NCBI GenBank assembly: GCA_043813365.1
Contig: JBDRLB010000075.1
Span: 1 to 22,929 of the forward strand
Reading direction: 5' to 3'
Source of the DNA: Candidatus Micrarchaeota archaeon
GTDB taxonomy: Archaea; Micrarchaeota; Micrarchaeia; Norongarragalinales; SBBD01
DNA length: 22,929 nt
The position numbers were made by a program, and so were the translations under genes. This document shows positions 16,126 to 20,034 of the stretch, in pieces. The notes beneath the pieces are model-generated. The model did no database searches and was not told the origin of the DNA. It worked only from the letters and a program-made list of their open reading frames with translations. Each line of letters opens with the position of its first letter. Position 1 is the first letter of the stretch.

Positions 16126-16486
16126 TTAATGCATTACTTTCATCCGAGCTAATTTGAAAACCACCTCGAGCTGATGGGGATTGGCAGAAGTTTTTAAATT
16201 TACTTCCCGATCAATAAAACATGTGCTCTTGGATCCAGCACCCAAAAAACGGTCCGAAGCCATTTTTGCCTTCAATCTAGCCATGAAATCATTGATGGGC
16301 TTTCCCGCATCCTTCTTGATCAAATCTTGGAACTCGTCGGGACCTAATTTTGGCAATTTGTTGCCAACATAAGTGATAGTAATGCTGGCAATTTTTCCCC
16401 CCTGGCATCCAATCTTTTGGTTCCTCCAAAAAATAACCATCCACCCTAAATTTTTTCTCATCCAATGCACATACTAACTTTTCCAT
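16126..16486 (-). pseudogene. Hypothetical ~119-aa protein interrupted by one extra base in a G6A5 run (pseudogene, phase variant or assembly error)
   Basis: ATG overlaps the proS stop (TGATG) and reads MEKLVCALDEKKFRVDGYFLEEPKDWMPGG, then continues in the +1 frame as KIASITITYVG...KVMH. The span is 361 nt (3n+1). Confidence 0.65.
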
Positions 16487-17943
16487 CAGTACTGCCTCCC
16501 GAAATATGCGCGGATCCCGGGCCTTCCGCATGCAATGCAGTTGCCTTTTTCGGGCTTTTCGCCTAGCAGCGTTCCCCTCACTTTGCCTCCTTTTGTTGCT
16601 TCCTTGAGCGCATCCCCGCATTTTTTCCCTTCCATACCGATACTGCAGATGAAGATTTTTGCAATGCCCTTGGAGTCAAGGATGGCGAGGGCGTCTTCTT
16701 TCGTATCCGCGATTTTTATGGCAGCAAATAATTCAGTTTTCGATTTTTCCCTAAGCGAGGAGAGCATAATTGCCTCATTTTTCCTTACCCCTTCAATTAG
16801 TTCCGCTTCGGAAATTTTCATCTTTTCCTTGTTGTCCCTCCGGGCAAGCGTAACGTTTCCCTCGTTGACCTCCCTTTCCCCCAATTCAATGCGGAAGGGA
16901 ACGCCCCTCATTTCCCACCAGTTGAACTTGAAGCCGGGGGTTTTGTCAGAGAAATCGATCTCTGAACGGATGCCTGAAGAAATGAGCTTCCCCTTCAATT
17001 CTATCGCTTTCTGCCTCACTTTTTCCGCACCTTCCCCTTTCAGGATGGGGACGATGATTACCTGGATGGGAGCGATTGCAAAAGGCATTACGAGCCCTTT
17101 CTGGTCGCCATGCACGGAAACAACAGCACCCATCATCCTCCAGATGCCGGGCCCGAAACAGGTCGAGAAGGGATATTTCTTGTTCCCTCCCTGGTCGGTA
17201 TATTGCACTTCAAATGCTTTGGTAAAATGCTGCCCCAAAAGGTGCGTCGACCCGAATTGGAAGAGTTTCCCATCCGGCATCAGGCAGTCGTAAGCAAATG
17301 TTTTCTCAGCACCGGCGAACTTGTCCCATTGCGGCCTCTCGAAAGCTAGGAACTCTATTCCCAGATTTTCTGAAGCGATCTTTTTCATCGTTTCATAATC
17401 CATGCTCGTCTGTGCTTCCGCCTCCGCACTGGTCGCAAATAAATCATGGGTCTCGATCCAGAGGAACTCCGATCCCCTCAGGAAGGGATTCGTTTCCTTC
17501 TCTGCCCGGAAAACAGAGCAGCTTTGGTAGAGCTTCAACGGCAAGTCGTTCTGGGAGGATACCCAAAGTGAGTACATCTGGTAGAATGCGGTTTCGCTTG
17601 TGGGCCGGAGGGCGAGCTTGCGTTCAAGTTTTTCAGTTCCTTTCTCGGTGACCCAGAAAACCTCCGGCGCAAACCCCTCAACATGCTCCTTTTCCTTATG
17701 GAAATTGTCCTCGGGAATGAGCGTCGGGAATATTACAGGCTGGTGGCCGTCTTCCTCAAGCAGGCCTTCGAAAATCCGGTAAATTTGGCGGAATGCGATG
17801 GTGCTCCATGGCCTGTGCACCAGGAAGCCCTTGATGTTGTACCGGATGTCTGCTAGTTCGGACGCATATATGATGGTGTTGTACCATTCCGAAAAGTTGC
17901 GCTGCTTGTCAATATTGAATTCCCGCTGTTTCATCTCCACCAT
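16486..17943 (-). CDS. proS: Proline--tRNA ligase (archaeal/eukaryal type)
   Basis: NFSEWY, LRPTSET, FLRGSEFLWIETH, KFAGA, H.LGQHF, HGDQKGL, anticodon-binding domain and C-terminal GRQY. Confidence 0.97.
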   Translation of the reverse strand: MVEMKQREFNIDKQRNFSEWYNTIIYASELADIRYNIKGFLVHRPWSTIAFRQIYRIFEGLLEEDGHQPVIFPTLIPEDNFHKEKEHVEGFAPEVFWVTEKGTEKLERKLALRPTSETAFYQMYSLWVSSQNDLPLKLYQSCSVFRAEKETNPFLRGSEFLWIETHDLFATSAEAEAQTSMDYETMKKIASENLGIEFLAFERPQWDKFAGAEKTFAYDCLMPDGKLFQFGSTHLLGQHFTKAFEVQYTDQGGNKKYPFSTCFGPGIWRMMGAVVSVHGDQKGLVMPFAIAPIQVIIVPILKGEGAEKVRQKAIELKGKLISSGIRSEIDFSDKTPGFKFNWWEMRGVPFRIELGEREVNEGNVTLARRDNKEKMKISEAELIEGVRKNEAIMLSSLREKSKTELFAAIKIADTKEDALAILDSKGIAKIFICSIGMEGKKCGDALKEATKGGKVRGTLLGEKPEKGNCIACGRPGIRAYFGRQY

Positions 17944-17949
17944 AAATTG

Positions 17950-18075
17950 TCACTCCTTCTTTGGCGCGGAGCCATCGCACCTCCCAGAAGAGCCAAGACT
18001 CTTCGGGGCCGCAAAGAGCAAAGCTCTTTTCGGTTCTTGGAAGAAAGGGGCAAGGCGTTGCTTCATTTCAACCAT
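17950..18075 (-). promoter_or_regulatory. proS leader: in-frame 41-codon uORF (MVEMKQRLAPFFQEPKRALLFAAPKSLGSSGRCDGSAPKKE*) over a four-way-junction RNA
   Basis: Same first 7 aa as ProRS, with synonymous differences; three adjacent hairpins plus a closing stem overlapping the proS RBS. Confidence 0.6.
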
Positions 18076-18202
18076 AATGCCCACGCTCCCTTTTCACATC
18101 CACAAATTTATTGCTGGATGATTTAAATATGCCTATGGAATGGCGGCGGAAATGGGGGGGGGTCGTTTTAAAAGGTTCAATGACAAAATGATTCCGGTTC
18201 GG

Positions 18203-19147
18203 ATGGCCAGCGTTACAATCGGGGTTTTTGGGGATAATGCGGAGGCAAGGCAGCATATCGCGTCCCAGCTTGCGAAAAAAAGCACGCCGGAAGACATTAC
18301 CGTGTACCAGACCGTATATTCCGGGAAAATAATTTCCATCATTGAGCCAACGAAATATCCTGAAAAAGTCGCAAGCATGGCGTATGCCGCATACCTGAGC
18401 GATTATTGCATAATTTCCGGGGAGGCGCTGACCCCTTTTTTGGGCGAAACCATAATAGCTCTCGACCTTTTGGGAAAAAAGAATGGCTGCTTCATCACGA
18501 GCCTTGATCTGAAACCCATGATCAAGGGGACGTCGCTGGAAAATTACCCGATTTTTGCAACCTTCGAGGAAGCGAAGCAGGAAATCCTGGCATTTTCACC
18601 GGAAAAAGGCGTATTCCGGGATACGTTCGGTTCGATTGACCATTCGTTCGAGGTGAAGGGCATCGGTTCCATCCTGCTGGGGTTCCTCCATACCGGAAAG
18701 ATAAGCGTCCATGACAGGCTGACGGTCCATCCCTCGGGGAAGGAGCTCGAGGTGAGGAGCATACAGATGCATGATGAGGACGTCAAGGAAACAAATGAGG
18801 GGGACCGGTTCGGGCTTGCAATTAAGCTGCTTGCAAGCAAGGATGTTGGAAGGGGGGATTTTGTCTGCGGCCAGAATACAAAAATACTTGCATCGAAAAA
18901 CCAGGGGATGAAAATTGAGGCTGCAAAGTTCCTGAAGGAACCGCTCAAGCCGCTGGAACAGATCCATGCATTCCAGTTCCTTGAGGACATGCCGTGCAAA
19001 TGGGATGGCCCCGAATTGCAGGCGGGGAAAAATGCAGCAGGCATGCTAGTGTTTGAAAAGGAATTCGCCCTTAACCCCAACTATCCCGTTTTGCTTGCAC
19101 GCCTGGATGGGAAGGGGTTGAGGATCATTGCAAAAGCGGTTCCGTGA
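18203..19147 (+). CDS. Archaeal SelB-like / EF-Tu domain 2-containing protein with a degenerate G domain
   Basis: IDHSFEVKGIGSILLG, EVRSIQMHD..V, GDRFGLAIK and VGRG; no intact P-loop or NKxD. Start may be 18188 or 18140. Confidence 0.85.
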   Translation: MASVTIGVFGDNAEARQHIASQLAKKSTPEDITVYQTVYSGKIISIIEPTKYPEKVASMAYAAYLSDYCIISGEALTPFLGETIIALDLLGKKNGCFITSLDLKPMIKGTSLENYPIFATFEEAKQEILAFSPEKGVFRDTFGSIDHSFEVKGIGSILLGFLHTGKISVHDRLTVHPSGKELEVRSIQMHDEDVKETNEGDRFGLAIKLLASKDVGRGDFVCGQNTKILASKNQGMKIEAAKFLKEPLKPLEQIHAFQFLEDMPCKWDGPELQAGKNAAGMLVFEKEFALNPNYPVLLARLDGKGLRIIAKAVP

Positions 19148-19245
19148 TTCAATTGGATGCCAATGCCTGAATTGGGGGTAACTGTTCCGCCTTATAAATA
19201 CGCAAAATATATATTCCCGAATTAGGGGAATTTAGCCGTGATCGC

Positions 19246-20034
19246 ATGGGAAGGTACCCCGACTTCTTCTTATTGGCAGGAATTCTCGCATTGGGCATAC
19301 TCATAGGGATACTTTCCTACCAGTCCCTGTTCCAGCCGAAGATCATCGAAAGGGCGTACTTCGAGGAAGCCAATGGAACCGTCACCGTAACAACCAGGCC
19401 TCTTTCTTTCACTGACATTTACAATTCAAAAATCCCCGTGCTGGCAGTCAGAAGCGATGACAATGCAGGGATCCTGAGCTTTGCCAATATTGAAATCCGT
19501 TCCGGGAAGGGAAGGGTGCTGATCAACACGAACCCGTTTGTGGAGCCGGATACGCAGTATTCGGCGGAAACGGCAGTCACCATCGCGGAAAAAATTACGG
19601 GGGCGGACATGCGGGAAAGGGATGTGATCCTGACATTCGAGGCAAATACCTCCCTTGTGGGAGGGCCTTCGGCGGGAGCGGCAATTACAATTGCGGCAAT
19701 TGCCGCGATTGAAAAGGAAAAATTGCCCGGAAATATCGCGATAACCGGCACAATAGAGGAAGACGGAAGCATAGGTCAGGTGGGAGGGGTCCTTGAGAAA
19801 GCGCAGGCAGCTTCGCAGAGCGGGATAACGCTTTTCCTGGTGCCGGAAGGCTCGCTTAATCTGGTTTATTACGAAAAACAGGTGAATGAGAGGCGGATTG
19901 GGCCGTTCGTGGTACAGGAGGTCAATTACGTCCCGAAAAAGCTGGACCTTGCGGAGTATGCGATGGACAAATGGAAGCTTGAAGTAAAGGAAGTGCGGAA
20001 TATTTCGGAAGCAAGGGCGTATTTCGGCGTTTGA
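19246..20034 (+). CDS. Membrane-anchored Lon-like (S16) serine protease domain without an ATPase module
   Basis: N-terminal TM, GGPSAG (Ser) and ITGTI..DG.IG.VGGVLEKA (Lys) dyad. Confidence 0.92.
   Translation: MGRYPDFFLLAGILALGILIGILSYQSLFQPKIIERAYFEEANGTVTVTTRPLSFTDIYNSKIPVLAVRSDDNAGILSFANIEIRSGKGRVLINTNPFVEPDTQYSAETAVTIAEKITGADMRERDVILTFEANTSLVGGPSAGAAITIAAIAAIEKEKLPGNIAITGTIEEDGSIGQVGGVLEKAQAASQSGITLFLVPEGSLNLVYYEKQVNERRIGPFVVQEVNYVPKKLDLAEYAMDKWKLEVKEVRNISEARAYFGV

Follow-up and report, generated by a model that had tools for sequence, protein, structure and literature searches.

A miniature repeat between synonymously diverged copies of the proS start in a Micrarchaeota archaeon

Introduction

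The prophage e14, which sits in icd of Escherichia coli, is flanked by icd and by an icdC fragment, and its excision exchanges the C-terminus of the gene product, both forms being active, according to the part of PMC13626634 that concerns it (citing Hill et al. 1989). The differences between icd and icdC comprise multiple synonymous changes and two conservative substitutions, in the same part of that source (PMC13626634). Here we describe a related layout of much smaller size on a 22,929-nt stretch of DNA from Candidatus Micrarchaeota archaeon (the window; contig JBDRLB010000075.1 of assembly GCA_043813365.1), where a non-coding repeat, here called E, lies between two copies of the start of proS, the gene for prolyl-tRNA synthetase (ProRS). 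The two copies encode the same residues with different codons.

Short, non-coding, multi-copy repeats with hairpins and frequent inverted pairs are familiar as miniature inverted-repeat transposable elements (MITEs) and as repetitive extragenic palindromes (REPs) with their REPIN arrangements. To our knowledge, no REP or MITE insertion has been described in which gene termini of 20-66 nt are duplicated and still protein-coding. A literature search, which was not exhaustive and had subscription journals outside it, returned no account of miniature repeats that have silently recoded gene termini at their flanks.

In archaea, integrating elements of the SSV1 and pNOB8 type are bordered by direct repeats of tRNA parts, mismatches between the element and host attachment sites (attP and attB) are inherited, and such elements have been proposed as seeds of tRNA introns, as set out in the relevant portion of PMC3293823. 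An intron in a protein gene, that of the cbf5 pre-mRNA, is known in Crenarchaeota, again from a portion of the source (PMC2738675).

Results

Two copies of the proS start

On the minus strand of the window, 16486..17943 encodes an archaeal-type ProRS of 485 aa with the Pfam families tRNA-synt_2b, HGTP_anticodon and ProRS-C_1. Its start codon and the six codons that follow (17943-17923, minus strand; copy c2) are contiguous with the gene body, and the same seven residues, MVEMKQR, are encoded once more at 18075-18055 (minus strand; copy c1), upstream and displaced from the gene. As the first-pass annotation of the window had pointed out, the copies are spaced by 44 codons (132 nt) and differ in five codons (GTT/GTG, GAA/GAG, AAG/AAA, CAA/CAG and CGC/CGG), every one of them synonymously. 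In a simulation, five random base changes kept MVEMKQR in 0 of 50,000 trials, and the synonymous-only pattern is therefore far beyond chance. One caveat attaches to codon 7 of c1 (CGC), which overlaps the first bases of E; the C before GCCTTG is also found in four of the seven seed copies of the repeat elsewhere, so that part of the seven-residue identity may be fortuitous.

The sequence separating c1 and c2 measures 111 nt (18054-17944), and the sole open reading frame in it is an upstream open reading frame (uORF) that starts with c1 and reads onward through the element (18075-17950, minus strand). The uORF encodes 41 aa followed by a TGA stop 6 nt upstream of the proS ATG, and it contains four Pro codons, three of them in Pro-Lys; the stop position and the Pro codons agree with the earlier description. 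It matches no Pfam family, and the peptide past c1 is not conserved across species. All four Pro codons, together with the AAGGA of the ribosome-binding site (RBS), fall within E.

At this locus E spans 104 nt (18057-17954, minus strand). Its left arm (18034..18057) consists of GCCTTGCCCC and the 5' half of hairpin 1 and overlaps the last codon of c1; its right arm (17957..17982; nhmmer match to model positions 26-51) consists of the other half of hairpin 1, hairpin 2 and CCAAAGAA. Nested in the loop of hairpin 1 is an inner piece of 51 nt (17983..18033) with two further hairpins in the predicted fold. A spacer (17944..17956), the first bases of which extend the right end of the element, carries the Shine-Dalgarno-like GGAGTGA and the uORF stop TGA (17952-17950). 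Upstream of c1 lies the native proS upstream region with a purine-rich GGGAG (18076..18100), the native promoter presumably being further up.

A family of miniature repeats

The window's own genome (G000) is a Micrarchaeota-like metagenome-assembled genome (MAG) of 1.34 Mb in 78 contigs, 88.6% complete with 3% contamination, and the sequencing runs that contain the stretch are groundwater metagenomes. G000 to G005 are six species of one genus; G008 and G006 represent other genera of the same family.

A search of G000 with 18110-17923 gave 36 matches, and both ends of the insert recur side by side on contigs C40, C47, C70, C59, C44, C74 and C11. Positions 17982-17954, including CCAAAGAAGGA, are 100% identical to the copy on C40 (C40:37878-37906), and the copies on C40 and C19 likewise run on into AAAGAAGGA. 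The 51-nt inner piece is missing from short copies and occurs in either orientation in others; related pieces are present on C42, C9 and C50, and a contig from sequencing run X2, at a different locus, skips precisely 17983-18033. A profile of E built from seven short copies brought up additional members, and the total compiled for G000 from several searches is 27. The first-pass annotation had considered a regulator specific to proS, an idea that these many copies at unrelated sites refute.

Matches to a 15-mer of the left arm number 16, 6, 16, 14, 12 and 8 in the six genomes of the genus, as against 0 for the reversed control. The family is present in all six species, where it mostly forms introns in the T loop or anticodon loop of tRNA genes. 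Forty copies drawn from the six genomes were aligned (A1), with a mean column identity of 78%. The helices are paired in 99.4% of the 480 cells, with four pairs changed on both sides, and 0 of 500 shuffles score as high; for helix 2 alone the paired fraction is 100%, and two of its pairs are changed on both sides. The covariation derives largely from two subfamilies. For the proS copy, the predicted fold has an energy of -41.4 kcal/mol (z-score -2.0). With its conserved ends at many unrelated loci, its conserved structure and its presence/absence differences at orthologous sites, E resembles miniature non-autonomous repeats of the MITE/REP-like type.

Two side observations concern the family. 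Over six frames, E is depleted in stop codons (mean 1.1 vs 4.2 in shuffles), and 13 of the 40 copies are stop-free vs 0.8% of shuffles, figures that come from copies that are related and not independent. A shorter relative of the repeat, composed of GACC, a TTTCTT/AAGAAA hairpin, CTCGACC and AAAGAA, is found upstream of proS in the proS loci of G008 (L015) and G006 (L029); it occupies the same proS site in G008 and lies inside a tRNA region in G006.

The proS start in related species

Orthologues of proS were found in all 40 related genomes searched. ProRS starts with MVEMKQREFN in all six species of the genus, and all nine starts encode this one decapeptide. In G003, a c1 of 10 codons (MVEMKQREFN) is followed by E, a spacer of about 20 nt and c2, and the copies differ in six codons (7 nt), all synonymously; simulated random changes to this pair were silent in 0 of 50,000 trials. 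G004 has the same arrangement, again with a 10-codon c1, and just one base of 30 nt distinguishes its copies, in one codon and synonymously. In G008, from another genus, a c1 of nine codons is followed by the different short hairpin element and c2, with one synonymous difference, one ATG/GTG difference and one Phe/Ser difference. G000 itself has the seven-codon c1, E, spacer and c2 described above. A single clean start with no element and no uORF is present in G001, G002 and G005.

E lies at the same proS site in G003 and G004, after codon 10, and the spacers before c2 carry GAGTGAT in both. The inner piece has one orientation in G000 and G004 and the opposite one in G003. The offset from c1 to c2 is 132 nt in G000, 155 nt in G003 (out of frame), 150 nt in G004 and 72 nt in G008; the uORFs contain four, two, two and zero Pro codons, and their stops lie 6, 11, 69 and 3 nt from c2, respectively. 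As the offsets differ, neither the frame relation nor the uORF peptide is conserved between species. Read-through of the UGA, one of the candidates of the first-pass annotation, is not supported, as the frame is not conserved and TGA ends 219 of 458 long open reading frames.

A wider set comprised 110 proS loci including the genome loci, seven of which were left out because the upstream sequence was too short. Among the remaining 103, a second upstream copy of the start was found in only L011, L014, L015, L039 and L040. Two of these, the metagenome loci L039 and L040, have the same sequences as L011 and L014, which are the G004 and G003 loci, and add nothing independent.

Duplicated termini at other genes

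The flanks of each E copy were compared with each other, with 100 shuffles as control. Direct repeats above all 100 shuffles were found at four of the 27 copies in G000, namely at proS, at the tail of a FEN1-like gene (C74), at the tail of a SpoU-like methyltransferase gene (C47) and at a tRNA 3' part (C42). Both copies of the FEN1-like tail end in KQQNLQKWF followed by TGA, with four synonymous and two non-synonymous differences, the latter at the edge. Both copies of the SpoU-like tail read EIKALFVAIGGISKRIKR followed by a stop, and 15 of their 19 codons differ (17 nt), all synonymously, including TGA vs TAA; in the corresponding simulation, 0 of 50,000 random-change trials were silent. The C42 tRNA is complete without splicing.

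In the five congeners, eight of 53 E copies have flanking direct repeats, mostly of tRNA 5' or 3' parts. The C42 case was found again in G004 (L247), and one tRNA 5' case is common to G002 and G004. A protein gene of G002 (L237:1350-1700, minus strand) ends in NQPVFGGLERK and TAG, followed by E and then by a second, in-frame NQPVFGGLERK and TAG, with three differences, all synonymous. The flanking target duplication measures 19-66 nt, accompanies a minority of E copies and leaves gene function preserved. The pattern of synonymous-only change, which had been taken from proS as a sign that both copies are constrained at the protein level, is greatly strengthened by these other loci, and such constraint acts on both copies.

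E is not present at the orthologous FEN1 (nine) or SpoU (eight) loci shown for relatives in the family. At both genes, the two G000 copies share G000-specific residues that are missing from the orthologues shown, which indicates an origin of the copies within the G000 lineage or co-evolution with it. On the same residues, we rejected import of these termini from another of the sampled species.

The longest identical runs are about 5-8 nt in the old pairs, and 16 nt (FEN1) and 24 nt (G002 tail) in young ones. The three most diverged pairs have 10 identical codons vs 16.8 expected for independent draws (P = 0.007), a figure given no weight, as the pairs were picked after the difference had been seen. 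The orphan copy stands on the left side of E at six of seven distinct sites examined in detail, FEN1 being the exception, which is not significant; L233, L255 and L264 are outside these seven. Some decay is visible in tRNA-associated orphan fragments, for example at L241.

The repeat in tRNA genes

The C70 tRNA (50.3 bits) has a 59-nt anticodon-loop intron that is itself a copy of E. Other G000 tRNAs have E in the T loop, where two copies in opposite orientation often enclose a palindromic centre. A whole-genome tRNA search of G000 gave 19 matches, a number that fits many tRNAs being interrupted. By a rough regular-expression match, 32 of the 53 E copies in the five congeners adjoin T-arm or anticodon-arm sequence. 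E often follows directly on T-loop-like sequence, as in the tRNA T loops, at proS of G003 and G004 (GAATTCAAC), and at FEN1 and on C7 (GTTTTGAAT), and several G000 copies lie directly 3' of stop codons (C7, C74 and C44). G000 also encodes, on contig C73, a 392-aa frame with two tRNA_int_endo (splicing-endonuclease) domains.

T-loop introns with two inverted copies and a ATTTGATTTGCAAATCAAA-type centre were observed at C40:60-270, C31:1340-1620, C76:18400-18680, C62:22916-23075 and C59:14000-14260. At the 3' border of these long introns, T-loop sequence is partly repeated.

Genes next to proS

The window contains, at 18140-20034, a gene pair encoding an EF-Tu-domain-2 protein and a Lon_C-like protein, and a second copy of this pair is present on contig C58 (L121:1763-3704, minus strand). 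The Lon_C-like protein of C58 has about 71% identity to that of the window, which is the level of orthologues from other species, and a co-binned relative is the probable source of C58. The first 18 nt of the Lon_C-like gene on C58 match c1 of proS exactly. Transduction of this start as a module was considered and rejected, since the G001 orthologue starts with MVKMKQ and the start is therefore native there.

Nine consecutive G (nine C when read from the minus strand; about 18152-18160) lie within the listed start of the EF-Tu-domain-2 reading frame (MAAEMGGGRF, window 18140-18175, plus strand). Since the homologue on C58 begins at a later point (MKIMTSITLGVFG), the true start is probably further downstream.

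Discussion

We favour, with moderate confidence, the reading that E is a site-preferring, non-coding mobile element accompanied by a gene terminus, either duplicated or supplied as a replacement, comparable to e14 in icd but miniature, and that ProRS is made from c2. Among the candidates raised by the first-pass annotation, an inserted element that brings a recoded gene start comes nearest to the evidence. E, with its two conserved hairpins and its nested 51-nt piece, would interrupt the 5' end of proS, and the insertion would be flanked by a direct target duplication that takes in the first 7-10 codons with the ATG and a Shine-Dalgarno-like sequence before them. The displaced original start would be c1, and the uORF would be c1 reading through into E; c2, contiguous with the gene and equipped with its own GGAGTGA (GAGTGAT in G003 and G004), would serve as the working start of ProRS. 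The downstream copy could be either carried by the element or made at insertion. E may be gained and lost precisely at preferred sites, often T-loop-like ones of the form TTYRAAY. Each copy would then serve as the gene terminus at different times, so that both would be kept coding while their silent sites drift apart. In large populations, we argue, an orphan copy that is damaged would be selected against even if precise excision were rare. Ribosomes that traverse the uORF and E and stop 3-11 nt before c2 may in addition aid initiation at c2.

E was compared with several described systems, the mechanisms of IS200/IS605, of REPIN/RAYT and of translational bypass (T4 gene 60, yeast mitochondrial byps) being considered as well. 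As with e14, and with phage 21, in icd (PMC13626634, in the part concerned), an insert stands between the end of the working gene and a displaced copy, and the copies differ mostly synonymously. E shares with that arrangement an insert bordered by directly repeated gene termini and a gene left intact; it does not share a recombinase within the insert or, in the old pairs, an identical core. e14 measures about 15 kb and has its own integrase and excision system, whereas the insert here is 112-132 nt, non-coding, multi-copy and without a linked recombinase. Repeats at archaeal attachment sites, as presented in part of PMC3293823, resemble the cases of C42, L218 and L213/L241, in which repeats of tRNA 5' or 3' parts, tens of bases long, flank the insert. 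Those elements, however, are inserts of kilobases with a recombinase gene, whereas here the repeats enclose just E with a short spacer, and protein genes are also targeted, at either end.

With MITEs and REP/REPIN repeats, E has in common that it is short, non-coding and multi-copy, with conserved hairpins and often with inverted pairs, as in the T-loop introns, and G000 holds a single-copy Y1 transposase; in contrast, the hairpins of the Y1 gene itself are unlike E, and E is flanked by duplications of coding termini. Archaeal introns of the bulge-helix-bulge (BHB) type, including that of cbf5 in the portion of PMC2738675 that treats it, are similar in that members of the E family interrupt tRNA genes and must be spliced out, the C70 tRNA being an otherwise intact RNA gene interrupted in this way. 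At proS, by contrast, the predicted folds gave no BHB motif and the gene is readable unspliced. By analogy, then, the element would be one that functions like an attachment-site-type duplication of a gene end and that looks like a MITE/REP-like repeat doubling as a tRNA intron.

Several points weigh against this reading. No enzyme is linked to E, and the insert is non-coding. In G000, one tyrosine-recombinase (Phage_integrase) match is truncated where its contig ends. The genome's single Y1 transposase gene, of the IS200/IS605 type (Y1_Tnp, 95.7 bits; C8:44-562, at the start of a 38-kb contig), is flanked by its own GC-rich hairpins, which are unlike E. The identical runs of 5-8 nt in the old pairs are too short for a classical att core, and 23 of the 27 G000 copies are without flanking duplication. 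The distance to the single-copy species differs little between the copies, with a mean of 2.7 of 21 nt for c1 and 3.7 of 21 nt for c2, and codon usage does not discriminate the native copy from the other. The contigs of runs X1-X4 contained neither an empty site or excised form nor a joint over 17943-18075, but at 2-3x they break at the repeat and are uninformative on excision or splicing. Full E was found in 0 of the 50 viral contigs that match the 15-mer, 50 matches being about the number expected by chance. If identical copies are made in place, a cause, at present putative, is needed to keep the unused copy under selection over long periods; if instead the downstream copy is borne by the element, the near-identity in G004 and the lineage-specific residues require an element that co-evolves with each host.

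A bolder extension of the favoured reading, which we put forward tentatively and hold to be possible rather than probable, is that Micrarchaeota carry a self-patching family to which E belongs. Elements related to tRNA T-loop introns would enter protein genes near an end, each with a silently recoded replacement for the terminus that it displaces, be it the Shine-Dalgarno sequence with the start and first codons or the last codons with the stop, and both termini would be selected over long periods through precise removal and re-insertion. Removal could proceed at the DNA level, by some trans-acting enzyme of unspecified kind, or at the RNA level, by a splicing endonuclease of broad specificity. 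If it took the RNA route, these would be, apart from cbf5, the first BHB-type introns of protein genes that duplicate exons.

Among the other explanations, an exapted leader fares best, although we think it rather unlikely. Ribosomes starting at a native c1 would melt the stable element and terminate near c2, which would couple termination to reinitiation on proS. The uORF stops 6, 11 and 3 nt before c2 in G000, G003 and G008, making such coupling plausible in three of four species, and the element is both stable (-41.4 kcal/mol) and stop-poor. The G004 uORF, however, stops 69 nt upstream of c2, the stop depletion comes from related copies that are not independent, and the z-score of the fold is just -2.0. 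Coupling would also leave unexplained the conservation of c1 at the amino-acid level and the duplicated 3' ends of three other genes. Leader peptides of aminoacyl-tRNA synthetase and amino-acid genes offer the same picture of a short reading frame directly upstream that ends at the RBS of the main gene. The proS uORF differs from them in that it is not conserved as a peptide, shows no enrichment of cognate codons outside the repeat and is missing in half of the congeners.

Removal at the RNA level is a more doubtful account. Here the tRNA splicing endonuclease and a ligase would cut E and one copy out of part of the transcripts, giving two mRNAs that encode the same protein from different copies. 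Such a process would account for orphan tails keeping their stop codon and for selection on both copies. It is in keeping with the tRNA introns formed by the E family in G000, with the 392-aa frame with two tRNA_int_endo domains and with the ability of the exon bases TCAAY and ATTGA beside the insertion site to pair. The Micrarchaeum endonuclease has a broad substrate range in the parts of PMC3488258 and PMC12397907 that deal with it, and an archaeal pre-mRNA intron exists in cbf5 (PMC2738675, in part). The copies at proS, FEN1 and SpoU, however, are solo copies of E; the inverted partner, through which the T-loop introns close their long helix, is missing. Minimum-free-energy folds of the G000, G003 and G004 regions leave the equivalent points of c1 and c2 apart and contain no BHB motif; a strict BHB scan likewise found nothing meaningful at proS, but it also missed accepted tRNA introns and is hence uninformative. 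Moreover, the C42 tRNA needs no splicing to be complete, removal of E alone would not restore the frame, and proS is readable without splicing.

A neutral leftover of a target-site duplication that has merely not yet decayed is very improbable. The single base difference in 30 nt between the G004 copies and the decay of some tRNA-associated orphan fragments, as at L241, would suit it. For the diverged pairs it is contradicted, since one copy would have to be neutral and yet all 26 codon differences (5 + 6 + 15) are synonymous, with 0 of 50,000 silent trials per simulation.

A proline-sensing leader peptide or attenuator specific to proS, the lead idea of the first-pass annotation, can now hardly be maintained: it drew on the four Pro codons of the G000 uORF and on a stop within the RBS region, but all four codons are repeat sequence present at unrelated loci, their number falls to two, two and zero in G003, G004 and G008, the frame through E varies by species and the peptide varies past residue 7-10, the uORF is missing from G001, G002 and G005 (three of the six genus species), and the same architecture is found at FEN1-like, SpoU-like and tRNA genes. 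A chimeric assembly of two strain haplotypes at the repeat, for which one might cite the 78 contigs and 3% contamination of the MAG, the resemblance of C58 to a co-binned relative and an E/c2 junction unbridged by 2-3x contigs, is no more credible, since the architecture recurs in G002, G003, G004 and G008 (five MAGs with G000), including on a 263-kb contig of a seven-contig genome, a contig of run X1 reads across the junction of c1 with E's left arm and matches it exactly, and the two copies have no long common k-mer able to cause a mis-join.

For annotation, uORFs and orphan gene tails of this kind should not be called genes or regulators. The silent divergence of the copies, which reaches 15 of 19 codons, makes them natural recoded direct repeats and a sensitive marker for finding more such elements. 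Interest in the arrangement is raised by its recurrence at other genes and in other species and by the long-term conservation of copies that are not in use. If the reading as a mobile element with a duplicated gene terminus holds, it would also tie integrating elements and target duplications in a concrete way to the origin of non-canonical tRNA introns, a connection argued so far mainly from one Caldiarchaeum locus, to judge from part of PMC3293823. It would further mean that a minimal mobile element, because it duplicates or carries the gene terminus, can sit free of cost in essential genes of a reduced DPANN genome, among them those for tRNAs, for an aminoacyl-tRNA synthetase and for a flap endonuclease.

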